The notes: a model not told the origin generated them from the letters alone. A DNA stretch of 32,000 bases from Geobacter metallireducens GS-15 (GCF_000012925.1 NC_007517.1:240001-272000), one strand, 5' to 3'. Numbered from the stretch's first letter, positions 9,807-31,544 are shown. Numbers and translations are program-made.

Positions 9807-9872
9807 TCGGGATCATGGGCAAGGAGGAAATTTGTGCTTCTATCAAGAAGCATCAGGGGAGGGTCGATTGAA

Positions 9873-10811
9873 ATGGTATGGATGCGCTTTAGATTTCGTT
9901 TTGCCATTCTTTTTCTTTCCATGTCGTTTTTATTGTCCCGAACAGTCCATGGGGCCGGTGGGCCCAGTGGTGGAGCGGCCCAGAATATGGAACCGCGCCT
10001 TGCCGTCACCCCGGCGGTCATGGATTATGCCGTCAATACGGTAAAGCCGGTCCTTGACGCCAGTCCGGACAAAGACCGTCTGTCGCAACTGCTGAAAGTG
10101 GTGGATGTGCTCAAGGACCCGAAAATGGGCGTGGACGTCAACCGGATAGCACCCGATGCCTACTTCATCTACAACCTTCTCGACAAGGTCAAGCTGGGAT
10201 TTCTCTACACCTGGAAGTTTTCTCCGGAGCAAAAAGAGATGCTGCAGCGCTGGCATGGAAAGTACATGAACGAACATCCTGCCGACGTCTTTTTTGCCCC
10301 CACGGCCGATGAAATTATCAAAACCAGGGCCGGTTTCGGCTGTACACACTATGCCCGGGCATTCATCGCCGTCGTCAAGGCCCTCGGGCTGGTGGAAAAG
10401 CCGGAAGACCTGCGCTATGTGGTGTCCAGCAAAGCCGATGACTATAATCGTGCCCTGGAAAAGCAGGACATGGAGAAGACCATAAACGGTCATCAATTCG
10501 TGCTGGTGAAGATCGACTCAAGATGGATCGCCATCAATACGTCCCAGAGGGAAGAAGCGGTGAACATGCCCGAGGGATTTTCGCCGGAATCCTGCAGCCC
10601 GCCCCAAAACATTCCCGTCAGGTTCGAGTCCTATCCTGCGGGGATCATTTTTCTGCTCAGGAAAATCGGCAAGGACTTCAACGATGATTGCGGCGACATT
10701 TCCCTGGCAAATCTCATGAACATCTCGCGGTCGGGCAATACGGAAAACGGAATGTTTTTGTGGGAGCCATATGGAACAGTGAATCAGTCGTTTCCGGGCC
10801 GTCGGACTTGA
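9873..10811 (+). CDS. secreted transglutaminase-like / papain-fold protein (hypothetical)
   Basis: The ATG at 9873 follows GGGGAGGG and gives a signal peptide MVWMRFRFRFAILFLSMSFLLSRTVHG. Candidate Cys and His blocks are GFGCTHYARAFIAVVKALGL and NGHQFVLVKIDSRWIAINTS. The track's upstream extension merely translates the repeats. Confidence 0.5.
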   Translation: MVWMRFRFRFAILFLSMSFLLSRTVHGAGGPSGGAAQNMEPRLAVTPAVMDYAVNTVKPVLDASPDKDRLSQLLKVVDVLKDPKMGVDVNRIAPDAYFIYNLLDKVKLGFLYTWKFSPEQKEMLQRWHGKYMNEHPADVFFAPTADEIIKTRAGFGCTHYARAFIAVVKALGLVEKPEDLRYVVSSKADDYNRALEKQDMEKTINGHQFVLVKIDSRWIAINTSQREEAVNMPEGFSPESCSPPQNIPVRFESYPAGIIFLLRKIGKDFNDDCGDISLANLMNISRSGNTENGMFLWEPYGTVNQSFPGRRT

Positions 10812-10842
10812 TGACCTAGTTCGAGCGCCGTGCTCCCGCACT

Positions 10843-10869
10843 CGAATTCGGGGGACACCTTACTTAATT
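10843..10869 (-). repeat. island repeat copy 4, inverted (minus strand reads AATTAAGTAAGGTGTCCCCCGAATTCG)
   Basis: Reverse complement read directly from the sequence. It is the inverted partner of copy 3. Confidence 0.7.
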
Positions 10870-14395: not shown

Positions 14396-15675
14396 CTACG
14401 CAACGGGTTTTCCTCTGCGCGACCTTGTCAGAAACGACAAGGCGAACCCGACCAGGAGAAACCCGCATCCCATGGCGAAGCTGTAGACGGATGCCCGGCC
14501 CGGATAGAGCTCCGCCGGGTACCGGTCCTTGATCAGGGCCACCAGTTGGGGGCCCGCGATGCCGGCGGCGGACCAGGCGGTGAGGATCGCGCCGTAGACG
14601 GCAGGCATGACCCGAGCGCCGAACATGTCGAGCACGAACGCGGGCATGGTTCCGAAACCGCCGCCGTCGCAGAGGAGCACGTAGCAGACCAGCAGGGCGA
14701 AGTGCCAGGGAGAGTCGGTGCGCATCAGAAGCACGAACGCCAGGAACTGCGAGCCGAGGATCAGCCTGAAGGTCTCGGGCCGGCCGATCCGGTCCGAGAG
14801 TCCCCCCCAGAAAAACCTGCCGACCCCGTTGAACAGTGAACTGGTCGCAATCAGGGTGGCGCCGTACCGCGCCAGGGCCTCTTTTCCCAGCCCCGGACTG
14901 GCCTCGCCGCAGATTTCCTGAAAGAGCGGCGACTGGAAGCCGATGAGAGCGAGCCCGCGGTGATGTTGCAGAAAAAGATCCCCCAGAGAAGCGCAAATTC
15001 CCCGGAGAGAATGCAGGCGCGGGCTCCCCTCCCACCGTCGTCCGGGCCGCTTCCGGCCTGATCCCGCGGCAGGGCATATTCCGGCGGCACCCACCCCGTT
15101 GGAGGGTACCTGACAAAGGTCGCGGCAGGAACGGTCACCAGCAGGAACAGCACCCCCATGACGGCAAACACCGTCACCATGTCCCCGCCCATTTGCGCCA
15201 GGAGCAGAGGTGCGATGACCTTGGACATCAGCAGGGCGCCAAACCCGAACCCCATGACCACCATGCCGGTGGCAAACCCCTTGCGGTCAGGAAACCATCG
15301 GGCCACCGTGGCGACAGGGGTGACGTAGCCGAGCCCGAGTCCGGTCCCTCCGACCACCCCGTAGCCGATATACAGCAGCGGAAGGGAATGCATGCCGAGC
15401 GCCAGGGCCGCCAGGAGATAGCCGGCCCCGAACAGCGCCCCGCCCGCCAGGGCGAGCTTCGTTGGTCCAATCCTCGGCAGCATCATCCCCCCGGCTGCGG
15501 CGGCAAGGCCCAGGAAGCAGATGGCGAGGCTGAAGACCCATGCCACCTGGCTGTTGGTCCAGTGGGTGTCGCAGAACGGCTTCTGGAAGAAGCTCCAGGC
15601 GTACACGGTCCCGAGGCAGACCATGAGCAGCGTGCAGATGATTGCGATCCCCCAGCGGTTGGGCGTCTTTTCCAC
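14396..15675 (-). pseudogene. oxalate/formate antiporter-type MFS transporter interrupted by a -1 frameshift
   Basis: Two overlapping minus-strand ORFs, 14851..15675 and 14396..15094, each carry half of an MFS protein. The sensible sequence switches frame at ...FFCNITAG / LALIGFQSPLFQE, at the run GCGGG-CTC (plus-strand CCC at 14954-14956). Confidence 0.7.
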
Positions 15676-21073: not shown

Positions 21074-22446
21074 GCCTCGTCCGCAGAATCTGTGGGTAGT
21101 TGGCTGAAAAAATAAGGGCATTGCCCCTCCGTGAAGGATAAGATTGTTTTTGCGAGAAACGATCAAGTCCGACACGGGAGAAGCAATGCTTATCAAGACT
21201 GTACTGAACAAGTTCGAGCGTTTCAAGTCCTTCATTTACGGAGATTGCCGACTGGCGAAAGTCGGCGGCTCAGAAGCACTGGTCATTGACATCAAGGCTC
21301 GTCGCAACAGCAAGCCCGAATGCCCGGAATGTGGCAAGCGAGGCAAGACATACGACACGCAACCGGCCCGACTGTTCGAGTATGTGCCGATCTGGGCGTT
21401 CAAGGTCTTCTTTCGCTACGCTCCCCGTCGGGTTCTGTGCCCAATCCATGGGGTAAAGGTTGAATCCCTCCCCTGGGGGTATGGCAAAGAGCAAATGACG
21501 ATCTCGTACCAGGTCTATCTTGCCCGGTGGGCTCGGCGACTCTCCTGGAAGGAAGTTGCCGAAATCTTTAAGACCAGTTGGGACAGCATCTTTCGGGCGG
21601 TGCAGTATGCTGTCGATTACGGCCTGGCAAACAGAAACCTTGATGGCGTTACGGAAATCGGTGTTGATGAAATTGCCGTCTTCAAGGGCCATCAGTATCT
21701 TACGATGGTCTATCAGCTCAATGCCGGCGTCAGGCGTCTTCTCTGGTGTGGTCCGCAACGTCGGATAAGAACGCTACTGCGCTTCTTTCGGGAATTCGGC
21801 AAAGAACGCAGCGCCAAGCTCAAGTATGTCTGCAGCGACATGTGGGCACCGTATCTCAAGGTTATCGCCAAGCGGGCACCCAATGCCGTGAACATCCTCG
21901 ACCGCTTCCACATCATGCGGAAGTTTAACGAAGCGATTGACGAGGTTCGGCGCACCGAAGCCAAGGAGTTCAAGGCCGCCAAGCAGGAGAACGTCCTGGA
22001 AAAGGGCCGTTGGTTGCTGCTGAAACGGCCGGAAAATCTGTCCGAGAAGCAGACGTCACGATTGGGAGATTTGCTCAAGCTCAACCTCTCATCAATCAAG
22101 GCATATCTGCTGCGCGAGGACTTTCAGCAGTTCTGGGACTACCAGCGGTCTGACTTTGCTGGCAAGTTCCTCGACGACTGGGTCATCAGGACAATGCAAA
22201 CTGACCTGGAACCGATGAAGAAGGTTGCCAGGATGTTACGCAACCACAAACCGATGATTCTCAACTGGTTCAAGGCAAAAGGCCGACTTTCCAGCGGCGC
22301 GGTAGAGGGTCTGAACCTCAAAGCAAAACTGACTATCAGAAAAGCGTACGGTTTCCGAACCATCAAGTGCCTGCAAGTGGCGCTATATCACACACTTGGC
22401 GACTTGCCAGAACCCCTGTGTCACCACAGATTCTGCTAAAGAGCCT
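21074..22446 (+). mobile_element. ISL3-family insertion sequence, apparently intact (1373 bp)
   Basis: Terminal inverted repeats are GCCTCGTCCGCAGAATCTGTGG (21074-21095) and CCACAGATTCTGCTAAAGAGCC (22425-22446), matching at 18 of 22 positions. It carries a single transposase ORF and is flanked by an 8-bp direct repeat, as expected for ISL3. Confidence 0.85.
21186..22439 (+). CDS. ISL3-family transposase
   Basis: N-terminal zinc-finger-like CPECG...CPIHG. The core GVDEIAVFKGHQYLTMVYQL...DMWAPY...DRFHIMRKFNEAIDEVRR is typical of ISL3 transposases. The stop lies inside the right IR. Confidence 0.9.
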   Translation: MLIKTVLNKFERFKSFIYGDCRLAKVGGSEALVIDIKARRNSKPECPECGKRGKTYDTQPARLFEYVPIWAFKVFFRYAPRRVLCPIHGVKVESLPWGYGKEQMTISYQVYLARWARRLSWKEVAEIFKTSWDSIFRAVQYAVDYGLANRNLDGVTEIGVDEIAVFKGHQYLTMVYQLNAGVRRLLWCGPQRRIRTLLRFFREFGKERSAKLKYVCSDMWAPYLKVIAKRAPNAVNILDRFHIMRKFNEAIDEVRRTEAKEFKAAKQENVLEKGRWLLLKRPENLSEKQTSRLGDLLKLNLSSIKAYLLREDFQQFWDYQRSDFAGKFLDDWVIRTMQTDLEPMKKVARMLRNHKPMILNWFKAKGRLSSGAVEGLNLKAKLTIRKAYGFRTIKCLQVALYHTLGDLPEPLCHHRFC

Positions 22447-24084: not shown

Positions 24085-24930
24085 TCACGAGGCGATGGCA
24101 TACACCTCCGAGGAGATCGTGAGGTTCCCTTCGTCGAGCGCAAGGGGATGGGCACTATGCCCGATCAGTTCATAGAGCCGCTGATACCGCTCCACTTCCG
24201 CGTGCTGGGCTGTCTTGCGCCCGTAATATTTCCCTGGCTGGGCGAAGACATCGGTCACCACCTGGTCGTCGTAGATGGCAAAGTTGCAGGAGCCGGTGGT
24301 GTCCCGGCCGTTGATGTCGGTGGCGGCGGGGAGTTCGTCGCGGAAGGCGACCCGCACGTTGACGCCGTCACCATGCTGCGCGAGGAGCACCTTTTGCACT
24401 TCAGGGTCGGCAAGATCGTCGCGGTTGACGACGAAGATTCGGGTGATGGCCACTCCCTGCCCCAGGGCGCGGAGATTGGCCTGGTAGAAGTTGAGGAGGG
24501 TGCCGCGGTTTCCCCACCCGGGGGTCATGGGGTCCACCGCCTTGACGGAGTGGGTTGCCGCGTCGGAGAGTTTGGCCCCTTCCAGATAGAACTCGGTATC
24601 GTCCAGGGGGATGTACCCCTTTTCGAGCATGAGGAGCGTCCGCCGGGTCGAGGCCATCAACTCGGTGGCCCGGGCATGGCATTCGGCATCGCAAATCCGG
24701 GCGATGGCCGCAGGGATCTCGTGGGCCTCCCGGTACTGCTCGATGAGGGCGTCCCGTGATTTCTCCACATCTTCCCGCAGCAGCCAGGTGGCGAGGGAGA
24801 GGAGCACGCCCACGGCAAAGGTGACGTAGGCGACCTCCTCGTGGCGGAGTACCCAGTGGAAAAAGATCGCCAAGCCGGACCCGACGAGGAATTCGATAAA
24901 TACCGCCATGTTGTGGATTTTCTTGTTCAT
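24085..24930 (-). CDS. membrane-anchored protein of unknown function (2 TM helices plus a cytoplasmic or periplasmic domain)
   Basis: The ATG at 24930 is preceded by AGGAGG; the track ORF extends to 24996. TM segments are MAVFIEFLVGSGLAIFFHWVL and VAYVTFAVGVLLSLATWLL. I recognise no family signature in the C-terminal domain. Confidence 0.6.
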   Translation of the reverse strand: MNKKIHNMAVFIEFLVGSGLAIFFHWVLRHEEVAYVTFAVGVLLSLATWLLREDVEKSRDALIEQYREAHEIPAAIARICDAECHARATELMASTRRTLLMLEKGYIPLDDTEFYLEGAKLSDAATHSVKAVDPMTPGWGNRGTLLNFYQANLRALGQGVAITRIFVVNRDDLADPEVQKVLLAQHGDGVNVRVAFRDELPAATDINGRDTTGSCNFAIYDDQVVTDVFAQPGKYYGRKTAQHAEVERYQRLYELIGHSAHPLALDEGNLTISSEVYAIAS

Positions 24931-24955
24931 GATTTGTACCTCCTGCGTGGTTCCA

Positions 24956-25070
24956 GAAAACGAAAAAGCCGGGTCGCCGAAAAAATATTTCGGCAACCCG
25001 GCTGTCTCGGTGAGACCCTATGGGCTTTCCGCCCCATCCTCGCGGATGGTTTAGTATTGTCGTCTATTCT
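24956..25070 (-). promoter_or_regulatory. GEMM-I (cyclic-dinucleotide) riboswitch, aptamer plus intrinsic terminator, copy 1
   Basis: The minus strand reads ACGACAATACTAAACCATCCGCGAGGATGGGGCGGAAAGCCCATAGGGTCTCACCGAGACAGCCGGGTTGCCG. It has an AAACC junction, a hairpin capped by the GNRA loop GCGA, a GCGGAAAGCC junction, and a second hairpin. A terminator follows: AGCCGGGTTGCCGAAA/TTCGGCGACCCGGCT plus TTTTTCGTTTT. Confidence 0.75.
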
Positions 25071-25099
25071 GAAACCTGATTTGATTCGTTGAGCTATCC

Positions 25100-25128
25100 T
25101 TTTTACCCCCTCCCACTCGGCATGTCAA
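25100..25128 (-). promoter_or_regulatory. sigma70-type promoter for riboswitch copy 1
   Basis: The minus strand reads TTGACA, 17 nt, TAAAAA, about 40 nt upstream of the aptamer. Confidence 0.5.
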
Positions 25129-25342
25129 CCTGACAGGAGCAAACTTTTCCCCCTCCCGAGCATGCTGGATTTTGATTTTGCCGGTAGATCGGGAACATAC
25201 ACCCTCGCAGGGGGACCATGGTCGTTGTCATTTTTTGTCAACACGATAATCTGTCGAGCGTTTATAATAATAACGTCTTCGTGGAACCCTCGATGGGTAA
25301 TCGGAGGCGAGGCGTAAATCACGACGATGGAAGGAGGCTTGT

Positions 25343-30397: not shown

Positions 30398-31348
30398 TCA
30401 GGGTGTCGGGGTCAGATGAATGGCGCCGAGGTCGGTGGTTGCCTTGGATGCGACGGAAACGGCGGCGGACGAATAGAGCTGGAAACCGTTGGCGGCGACG
30501 AATGCCTTGTAGGCGACTGTCGCGGTGCTGGGCGGAACAAATACCGCAAAGGGGGCCTGCCACGTGCCGCTCGTGTAGTTGCTGAAGATCGTGCCGGCGG
30601 CGATGGGATTCACGTCGTTGATGGCGCCGCGGCGTTTCACCGACACCGTGGCGCTCGACCAGTCTGCGAACGGGGAAACGACCGTGCCGGAAATTGACCC
30701 ATAGGCTGGAATCACATCCTCCATCTGGATTATCCGTATTCCCGTAGGTTTCAGGATATATTTTTCGTTTTGCGGGGTGTTGCCGCGTTCAACAATGGCG
30801 GTGTTGGGATCGAAGTCGATGGCGATGGCGTTGATCACCCCCGGTTCAACCACAAACCTGCCAAGCACCTTGAGTCCCGATTGTTGTGCGCTGGGCGTCT
30901 TGAGGGGAATCTTTGTGTTCGGGTCGGATTTGAGGGTAACGTAATTGACCGGGTTCTGCCCATTGACGTTTGGTTCAAGGATCAGGCGGACCTGGCTGTA
31001 GGTTCCCACGGGAAGGGTTACCGTGCCGAGCAGTTCCTGGACATAGGCAAGGTCGAGAACGTTGAAGCTGGGGGATGGTTCAGCAAGCGGAATGGTGATT
31101 AGCAGGGGGTCGTCGTCGGATGCATTCTGGTCATATTCGACCGGTACGATTTTGACAGCTTTGATTTTTATCCTCACTTCAGCAAAATCGTCACTCAGTT
31201 TGTCGGTCAAGGCAACCTTCAGTGTACCGGTTGAGGCTGTCCCTCCTCCGCCTCCCCCGCCACTGCACCCCTGGAACTGGACCAGAGCCAGCGTCGCGAC
31301 AGCAAAGAACACCATTGTTTTCAGAGCGGATCTCATCTGTACCATCAT
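30398..31348 (-). CDS. secreted lipoprotein, DUF4382-like beta-sandwich protein
   Basis: AAGGAG RBS. Signal peptide with lipobox FQGC, followed by a Gly7 linker. The N-terminal LKVALTDKLSDDFAEVRIKIKAVKIV pattern resembles DUF4382. Confidence 0.6.
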   Translation of the reverse strand: MMVQMRSALKTMVFFAVATLALVQFQGCSGGGGGGGTASTGTLKVALTDKLSDDFAEVRIKIKAVKIVPVEYDQNASDDDPLLITIPLAEPSPSFNVLDLAYVQELLGTVTLPVGTYSQVRLILEPNVNGQNPVNYVTLKSDPNTKIPLKTPSAQQSGLKVLGRFVVEPGVINAIAIDFDPNTAIVERGNTPQNEKYILKPTGIRIIQMEDVIPAYGSISGTVVSPFADWSSATVSVKRRGAINDVNPIAAGTIFSNYTSGTWQAPFAVFVPPSTATVAYKAFVAANGFQLYSSAAVSVASKATTDLGAIHLTPTP

Positions 31349-31383
31349 GAATCTCCTTTCCCCGATTTTTCAGTGCCATAGCA

Positions 31384-31499
31384 CAAAAAAACCGGGCTGT
31401 CGAAAATGTGGTGACATTTCGGCAACCCGGCTGTCTCGGTGAGACCCTGTGGGCTTTCCGCCCCATCCTCGCGGATGGTTTAGTATTGTCGTGTATCAC
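31384..31499 (-). promoter_or_regulatory. GEMM-I (cyclic-dinucleotide) riboswitch, aptamer plus intrinsic terminator, copy 2
   Basis: Bases 31416-31492 match 24987-25063 at 76 of 77 positions. The terminator uses the same 5' arm but a different 3' arm (ACATTTTCGACAGCCCGGT plus TTTTTTTG on the minus strand). Confidence 0.75.
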
Positions 31500-31516: not shown

Positions 31517-31544
31517 AGTATACCGGCCGTCCGGGTGAAGTCAA
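31517..31544 (-). promoter_or_regulatory. sigma70-type promoter for riboswitch copy 2
   Basis: The minus strand reads TTGACT, 16 nt, TATACT. Confidence 0.5.

Follow-up and report, generated by a model that had tools for sequence, protein, structure and literature searches.

The two near-identical elements found in the 32,000-nucleotide stretch of Geobacter metallireducens GS-15 that we analysed (the window) are very probably two of the 16 GEMM-Ib (3′,3′-cGAMP) aptamers of this strain, which act as ligand-ON switches and resemble each other mainly through constraint. The literature already covers the two RNAs with their ligand class and mechanism, through an annotation from 2009, a ligand assignment from 2015, and a table from 2025. 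The published elements Gmet_R3002 (minus strand, 264958..265068) and Gmet_R3003 (minus strand, 271381..271497) coincide with the two window elements at a constant offset of 240000 and also match them in sequence, so that the window spans chromosome positions 240001-272000. They belong to a 16-copy alignment of a "predicted regulatory short RNA", Gmet_R3001-R3016 (Aklujkar et al. 2009, PMC2700814, Additional file 16), in which R3002 is placed 5′ of Gmet_0232 and R3003 is placed 5′ of Gmet_0241 and Gmet_0240. The proteins encoded downstream of the two copies are exact matches to ABB30477.1 and ABB30486.1, respectively (both GS-15), and these accessions are separated by 9, as are the numbers of Gmet_0232 and Gmet_0241. 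In Table S2 of a 2025 study (PMC12285248), the secondary source from which the cGAMP scoring used here is taken, Gm0232 and Gm0241 are given as cGAMP under both Nelson 2015 and Kellenberger 2015; other entries are promiscuous (e.g., Gm0749), undetermined, or not tested. Thirteen cGAMP-controlled loci have been counted in G. metallireducens in the literature, which agrees with 16 aptamers given that three loci are tandem pairs.

Searching the window with the Rfam covariance models gave exactly two matches, both to RF01051 (c-di-GMP-I / GEMM-I), on the minus strand, and full length (model positions 1-87 of 87); the gathering score of this family is 35 bits. The aptamer features are as follows.

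24989..25065, minus strand: aptamer copy 1 (Gm0232 / Gmet_R3002), GEMM-Ib type; RF01051 44.7 bits, no non-canonical pair flagged
25055, 25028, and 24993, minus strand: copy 1 equivalents of A20, the intercalating A47, and C92, respectively, from the model alignment
25049..25034, minus strand: copy 1 P1b hairpin with GCGA loop, from the model alignment
31418..31494, minus strand: aptamer copy 2 (Gm0241 / Gmet_R3003), GEMM-Ib type; RF01051 45.4 bits
31484, 31457, and 31422, minus strand: copy 2 equivalents of A20, A47, and C92, respectively, from the model alignment

In the RF01051 alignment both copies contain P1 (with a 2-bp inner part), P1b with the GNRA-type tetraloop GCGA, P2, and the AAA and AAAG junctions, and P1b and the distal part of P2 also formed in free-energy folds. 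Covariation was seen in P1b, where the 114 distinct clade members among the matches listed from the pattern scan described below have U-A, C-G, and U-G pairs.

The original prediction had noted A-C-U ahead of AAACC and reasoned that the base equivalent to G20 of the Vc2 aptamer is not G, and both observations held when the copies were aligned to the family. The consensus 5′ junction of RF01051 is G-GC-AAA, and both window copies read A-CU-AAA in the model alignment. The register follows from the consensus GC, which pairs with a later GC, and from the A after that later GC, which is the intercalating A47 of Vc2; because this pairing and the position of A47 fix the register, the unpaired consensus G is Vc2 G20. 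Both copies have A at the equivalent position (model position 11), with high posterior probability, and the inner P1 pairs of both are C-G and U-G. The 3′ junction is GCCGAA in both copies and fits the consensus gCCgaa, so the C92 equivalent is retained; its assignment to the first C of GCCGAA comes from the literature numbering together with our own count, and both candidate positions are C. When the window RNA is numbered from A14, the published contacts A11, A12, A14, and A41 all land on adenines, which at the level of sequence provides an independent check of the register.

In cGAMP riboswitches G20 of Vc2 is replaced by an adenine (A14 of Gs1761) that pairs with the adenine of cGAMP, while a cytosine pairs with the guanine; in the Gmet_0970 riboswitch, the substitution A20G shifts selectivity to c-di-GMP. 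Judged by their sequence, both window copies carry the combination of A20 and C92 that is the cGAMP (GEMM-Ib) signature. The alignment of these two positions supports the further suggestion that the copies belong to the cGAMP-type subclass, an assignment that had already been published for Gm0232 and Gm0241. Aptamers of the G type (G20) that share the unusual C-G and U-G inner P1 pairs and the GGC junction with the window copies are present in Gemmataceae, other Planctomycetota, Methylomonas, and Gallionellaceae MAGs among the matches listed (loci L006, L018, L020, L024, L063, L064, L069, L079, L086, L092, L094, L107, and others). Because these G-type aptamers carry the same inner P1 pairs, the CU...GG context is not specific to the cGAMP subclass. 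Within G. metallireducens, 5 of the 16 aptamers (Gmet_R3004, R3012, R3013, R3014, and R3015) have ACUCAACC or ACUUAACC in place of ACUAAACC, variants that alter the first A of the conserved AAA junction beside the ligand pocket; two loci with these variants, Gm0292 and Gm2168, are marked "undetermined" in Table S2 of PMC12285248.

Each aptamer overlaps an intrinsic terminator. The expression platforms, putative promoters, and adjoining genes are listed below.

24958..25003, minus strand: intrinsic terminator of copy 1 (16-bp stem at 25003..24967, then a U tract); terminator scan, 16 pairs, 10 G-C, loop of 5
31385..31432, minus strand: intrinsic terminator of copy 2 (imperfect stem at 31432..31390, U7 tract), from the fold
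25100..25128, minus strand: candidate promoter of copy 1, TTGACA (25128..25123), 17-nt spacer, TAAAAA (25105..25100), read by eye
31517..31544, minus strand: putative sigma-70-type promoter of copy 2, TTGACT, 16-nt spacer, TATACT; promoter scan, 10/12 consensus matches
24085..24930, minus strand: Gmet_0232, the gene controlled by copy 1, 281 aa, with N-terminal membrane segments and a CDAECH motif; ABB30477.1
30398..31348, minus strand: Gmet_0241, DUF4382 lipoprotein, 316 aa, first gene under copy 2; Pfam DUF4382 E = 2e-30; ABB30486.1
29975..30334, minus strand: Gmet_0240, HTH and zinc-ribbon regulator (PF0610-like); Pfam PF21476 and PF23470
23097-24068, plus strand: Gmet_0231, PIG3-type NAD(P)H quinone oxidoreductase, from a family search

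The terminator hairpin of copy 1 (-31.9 kcal/mol, z = -7.4) dominates the minimum-energy fold of the full leader. That of copy 2 (-24.3 kcal/mol, z = -4.2) was not called by the simple terminator scan owing to an internal bulge, and is present in the minimum-energy fold of its full leader; without ligand, the fold of each leader thus includes the terminator. In both copies the 5′ arm of the terminator consists of the 3′ strand of P2, the junction with the C92 equivalent, and the 3′ strand of P1, which together make up the 3′ third of the aptamer. Because the terminator uses the 3′ strand of the aptamer as its own 5′ arm, the two structures are mutually exclusive. Terminators called on the plus strand at the P1b hairpin were discarded as artefacts of a palindromic stem.

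The promoters of both copies are putative. That of copy 1 probably lies at 25128..25100, and G. grbiciae has retained it; TTGACA-17-TAAAAA escaped the promoter scan because its -10 hexamer lacks the final T. A scan of the 63-nt gap between Gmet_0241 and Gmet_0240 found no promoter and no terminator, so Gmet_0240 is probably co-transcribed with Gmet_0241 and copy 2 would control both genes. Sequence comparison, the promoter and terminator scans, and the folds agree with the initial observation that the two copies differ in their promoters, 5′ leaders, and terminator 3′ arms.

Taken together, these features point to a ligand-ON transcriptional switch at each locus, because each aptamer overlaps an intrinsic terminator. 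A separate promoter would drive minus-strand transcription of each aptamer, and the nascent RNA would fold into the three-helix GEMM-I aptamer, where the adenine in place of Vc2 G20 would read the adenine of cGAMP and the C92-equivalent C would pair with its guanine. The last ~18 nt of the aptamer would double as the 5′ arm of the strong intrinsic terminator, such that bound ligand would block terminator formation and transcription would continue, into Gmet_0232 for copy 1 and into Gmet_0241 (DUF4382 lipoprotein) and Gmet_0240 (regulator) for copy 2. This logic, with the terminator competing with the aptamer 3′ strand, has been described for pilM and pgcA/GSU1761, and the pilM terminator ties up C75, which is the cGAMP-pairing cytosine and, in Gs1761 and pilM numbering, the equivalent of C92. 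Selectivity for cGAMP and the ON response are predicted for both window copies by analogy with this literature.

The ligand in the cell must be considered with some caution, as A at position 20 is no guarantee of selectivity: a protonated adenine lets Vc2 G20A, like several natural A-type RNAs, accept either ligand, and Gs1761 bound c-di-GMP only ~3-fold more weakly than cGAMP under one set of conditions. One may therefore postulate that both switches answer to c-di-GMP, or to both dinucleotides, in the cell, a scenario raised by the authors of the biofilm study themselves (PMC12285248). In their anode-biofilm transcriptomes the log2 fold changes at high cGAMP were +0.41 for Gmet0232 and -0.27 for Gmet0241; at low cGAMP they were +0.07 and +1.04, the latter in a strain with high c-di-GMP, and none of these changes was significant. 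We consider a c-di-GMP or dual response quite improbable, however. Both loci are given as cGAMP in the Kellenberger column of Table S2, which marks the promiscuous Gm0749 separately; all genes behind GEMM-Ib aptamers in G. sulfurreducens have been reported to drop upon deletion of the cGAMP synthase; and the Gm0232 and Gm0241 aptamers are the nearest to the consensus of the selective class. Gmet_1914, encoded outside the window, is described in the literature as an enzyme of the Hypr GGDEF type, and measurements of cellular cGAMP have been published for G. metallireducens.

The same small and non-significant transcript changes, from the one available G. metallireducens dataset, could be taken to mean that one or both copies are decayed relics that have lost any regulatory role. 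This is scarcely credible given that both aptamers are full length with no broken pair and that the terminator, Shine-Dalgarno sequence, and start codon are intact in each. The aptamers of G. metallireducens and G. grbiciae are identical at 77/77 positions for copy 1 and 76/77 for copy 2, and the conservation of the copy 2 aptamer contrasts with the 73% identity of its leader and the 68% identity of the DUF4382 coding sequence; Gmet_0232, furthermore, is strongly regulated, as it is 18-20-fold up on benzene (PMC4033198). The preferred reading remains that of two functional cGAMP-type ON switches.

We then considered why the two aptamers are so alike. Direct comparison of 24987-25063 with 31416-31492 gave the same base at 76/77 positions, as originally reported, the sole mismatch being A at 25020 versus G at 31449 on the plus strand (U versus C in the minus-strand RNA); a match this close between two 77-mers in 32 kb cannot have arisen by chance. 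The flanks had been said to diverge immediately, which is accurate for the first outward base on the RNA 5′ side (25064 versus 31493) and for the sequence farther out, where resemblance is at chance level on both sides, but three bases beyond that first mismatch, the AUA of helix P1, still match in register.

From this near-identity a recent modular duplication or gene conversion of the aptamer had been proposed, on the premise that independent copies of a riboswitch class share just the conserved core. This premise does not apply to Geobacterales. The 16 copies in the genome differ at a median of 7.5 of 76 aptamer bases (mean identity 90%), counts that are approximate given that the text of the Additional file 16 alignment of PMC2700814 loses 1-2 bases per row. 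The lost bases (GGGGCGG reduced to GGGCGG) were recognised from row lengths versus the coordinates given there and from the window sequence; the G of GGGGCGG was restored, which the window verifies for R3002 and R3003, and one G was restored in each of R3004 and R3009. The closest pairs within the genome are the tandem copies R3006/R3007 with 0 mismatches and R3002/R3003 with 1, followed by the next closest pairs with 3; R3002 is 2 substitutions from the genome consensus and R3003 is 1.

To place these numbers in a broader context we used a junction-pattern scan of 185,579 species genomes (pattern RCUAAACC-N10-16-GGGGCGGAAAGCC), which gave at least 120 loci. The pattern requires G at aptamer position 32 and does not cover the ACUCAACC and ACUUAACC variants, which biases the clade statistics, and G. 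metallireducens and G. sulfurreducens are not among the matches listed. The listed matches include at least 118 A-type aptamers, almost only from Geobacterales, and at least 20 G-type aptamers, mostly from other phyla. The closest of the 115 A-type aptamers listed from other genomes is 2 bases from the window copies, and those from other genera are 2-9 bases away. Among the matches listed, aptamers from different genomes have a median of 9 mismatches, with ~0.3% of pairs at 1 mismatch or fewer; in at least 7 pairs from different genera that show 0-1 mismatches, the downstream genes are not homologous. Only 17/77 columns are variable in these matches, with compensatory changes in P1b, and the column at which the window copies differ is the most variable of the "paired" columns (U-G in 37, C-G in 35, and A/G in 14 of 88 matches listed). 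Aptamers also accompany homologs of both controlled genes, being found upstream of DUF4382 homologs in six other genomes (41-61% amino acid identity) and with Gmet_0232 homologs (62-68% identity) in G. sulfurreducens, Geotalea uraniireducens, Geobacter sp. AOG1, Geomobilimonas luticola, and a MAG (H2geo).

Genome-wide concerted evolution was rejected as an explanation, since among the matches listed distant loci of one genome are no closer to each other than loci of different genomes (median 9 in both cases, P = 0.35). With copies ~90% identical throughout the genome and the same-genome and between-genome medians alike, extreme sequence constraint on the aptamer across Geobacterales appears to be the main cause of the near-identity of the pair. 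Because near-identical aptamers ahead of unrelated genes are normal in this clade, near-identity alone is no pointer to a recent event, and this serves as a caution for sequence scans: among GEMM-Ib aptamers in Geobacterales it is the rule and not evidence of recent duplication. Two loci of other genomes serve as analogues of the alternatives, one being a plain segmental duplication that is 91% identical over 446 nt with the gene included (L008), the other having identity confined to the aptamer ahead of diverged paralogous genes (L082).

Constraint alone does not fully explain, however, why this pair is both the most similar and the nearest of the 117 non-tandem pairs in the genome. Although all 16 copies are ~90% identical, the pair remains the closest non-tandem one, with 1 mismatch versus 3 for the next. 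The copies are also the closest in position, at 6.4 kb, and the next pair, 9.7 kb apart, has 9-10 mismatches. Among the matches listed, copies separated by no more than 8 kb show fewer mismatches than the background (median 5 versus 9, P = 7e-5), although these are mostly tandem pairs, and between genomes pairs this similar are rare, as noted above. One explanation is a specific and recent event: either a duplicate of the Gm0241 aptamer alone was placed ahead of Gmet_0232, 6.4 kb away, or a short gene-conversion tract with Gm0241 as its source replaced the older aptamer there; we regard this as possible, at somewhat less than even odds.

The bases at aptamer positions 32 and 69 bear on this possibility. 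All five orthologous Gmet_0232-linked aptamers (G. sulfurreducens, G. uraniireducens, AOG1, G. luticola, and H2geo) have A32 and C69, unlike Gm0232, which carries G32 and U69, the states of Gm0241. The Gm0232 terminator still has a 3′ arm, CGGCGACCCGGC, that is fully complementary to the C69 form, with the result that U69 leaves a G-U wobble; in G. grbiciae the compensating A is present. Because Gmet_0232 and Gmet_0241 are not homologous, no segmental gene duplication is involved. Against these points, G32 and U69 are the majority states, found in 13 of the 16 genome copies, and two ordinary substitutions would suffice: the inferred ancestral Gmet_0232-linked aptamer is just 2 bases from Gm0241, and the G. 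sulfurreducens ortholog is 3 bases away. Equally similar aptamers ahead of unrelated genes in different genera, which share no genome, and the lack of general concerted evolution, both among the matches listed, likewise weigh against a specific event, and the DUF4382-linked comparison set is biased given that the scan pattern pre-selected G32.

The timing of any such event is constrained by two relatives. Because both G. grbiciae copies already show the same C/U difference, any copying would predate the split from that species, and the neighbourhood is older than the split from G. hydrogenophilus; the event would thus not be recent on the species scale, contrary to that part of the proposal. 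G. grbiciae was rejected as a dating outgroup given that it is too close (97-98% identity). A recent insertion of a cassette comprising promoter, riboswitch, and Gmet_0232 was also rejected. In G. hydrogenophilus (L122 ~15179-15258 versus window 24147-25166) a deletion of ~1.0 kb has removed the promoter, the riboswitch, and most of Gmet_0232, and the last ~45 bases of the Gmet_0232 coding sequence are retained; because this 3′ coding remnant remains, the gene was deleted in G. hydrogenophilus rather than inserted in G. metallireducens. Overall, a short local conversion or an aptamer-only copy is plausible, if unproven, to a degree that falls a little short of balance, and the two neighbouring aptamers likely have a shared local history that cannot be dated, superimposed on the constraint that we favour as the chief cause of their similarity. 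The pair offers a compact example on which gene conversion confined to an aptamer, if it took place, can be tested, with a potential fossil built into the terminator.

The gene behind copy 1 has a documented role. Gmet_0232 (281 aa) is genetically required for anaerobic benzene oxidation and not for phenol oxidation, as is its convergent neighbour Gmet_0231, and the 18-20-fold increase of Gmet_0232 on benzene is relative to acetate or benzoate (PMC4033198). That study makes no mention of a cGAMP riboswitch ahead of Gmet_0232, nor does the benzene literature examined connect cGAMP control with the pathway. The position of Gmet_0232 behind a cGAMP riboswitch suggests that surface-sensing cGAMP signalling may gate anaerobic benzene oxidation. 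The Gmet_0232 protein matched no Pfam or NCBIfam family; it contains CDAECH, a CX3CH motif, and one paper lists it as a monoheme cytochrome. Its family comprises 857 relatives at E <= 1e-10, almost all unnamed. Homologs in three genera (L124-L127, ~9830-10850) are found directly after htpG (HSP90) and always behind a GEMM-I aptamer, and in AOG1 and G. luticola the gene that follows the homolog has its own aptamer as well; a Gmet_0232 homolog beside Gmet_0231 occurs only in the G. metallireducens clade. A broader scenario can be drawn up in which a conversion tract from Gm0241 overwrote the Gmet_0232-linked aptamer and left the terminator arm as a fossil, copying of aptamers between neighbouring leaders helps to maintain and extend the cGAMP regulon, and benzene oxidation came under cGAMP control; we view this combination as unlikely.

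Between G. metallireducens and G. grbiciae (30398-31415 versus L123 8935-9925), the DUF4382 coding sequence has 68% nucleotide and 62% amino acid identity, while the leader is 73%, the flanking genes 97-98%, and the aptamer 76/77 identical. Upstream of the aptamer the region is rearranged, with an MscS-type gene that is present in G. grbiciae and G. hydrogenophilus and absent in G. metallireducens. From these alignments the copy 2 aptamer and terminator would form a conserved block whose flanks on both sides have been replaced or are hypervariable, possibly through exchange of alleles or through diversifying selection acting on a surface lipoprotein. Elsewhere in the window, an intact ISL3-family transposase ORF (431 aa, 21144-22439, plus strand) lies between a DoxX gene and a membrane-protein gene, and the alignment to G. 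grbiciae is broken between 21073 and 22446, which suggests that the element is strain- or species-specific.

The closest known systems are Gs1761/pgcA of G. sulfurreducens (PDB 4YAZ) and Gm0970/pilM, which share with the window copies the Rfam family, the A at the G20 position, the C for Watson-Crick pairing to the guanine of cGAMP, the 16-nt P1b hairpin, and, as predicted for the window copies, an ON logic in which the aptamer 3′ strand pairs either within the aptamer or in the terminator. Gm0970 (Gmet_R3005) belongs to the same 16-member set in the same genome and differs from the window copies at 6-7/76 positions; the window copies have a GGC junction and an A-U pair in P1b where Gm0970 has a GAC junction and a G-U pair, and they also differ from it in other loop bases, promoters, terminator 3′ arms, and downstream genes. 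None of this amounts to a categorical difference from the Geobacter GEMM-Ib class, of which Gm0232 and Gm0241 are listed members. The Gmet_R3001-R3016 family contains the same elements at the same coordinates; it was found in 2009 by nucleotide-level BLAST through the high similarity of its copies, and the paper (PMC2700814) drew only a loose link to predicted cyclic-diguanylate riboswitches, the ligand being assigned in 2015. Vc2 of Vibrio cholerae, the archetype of RF01051, has in common with the window copies the fold of P1, P1b with its GNRA-type loop, and P2, as well as the AAAC junction, the intercalating A after P1, and the C at the C92 position. In the window copies, however, G20 of Vc2 is replaced by A, the P1 pairs G-C and C-G are replaced by C-G and U-G, and a GGC junction and a shorter P2 are present where Vc2 has a GAC junction; the predicted ligand of the window copies is cGAMP, and that of Vc2 is c-di-GMP.
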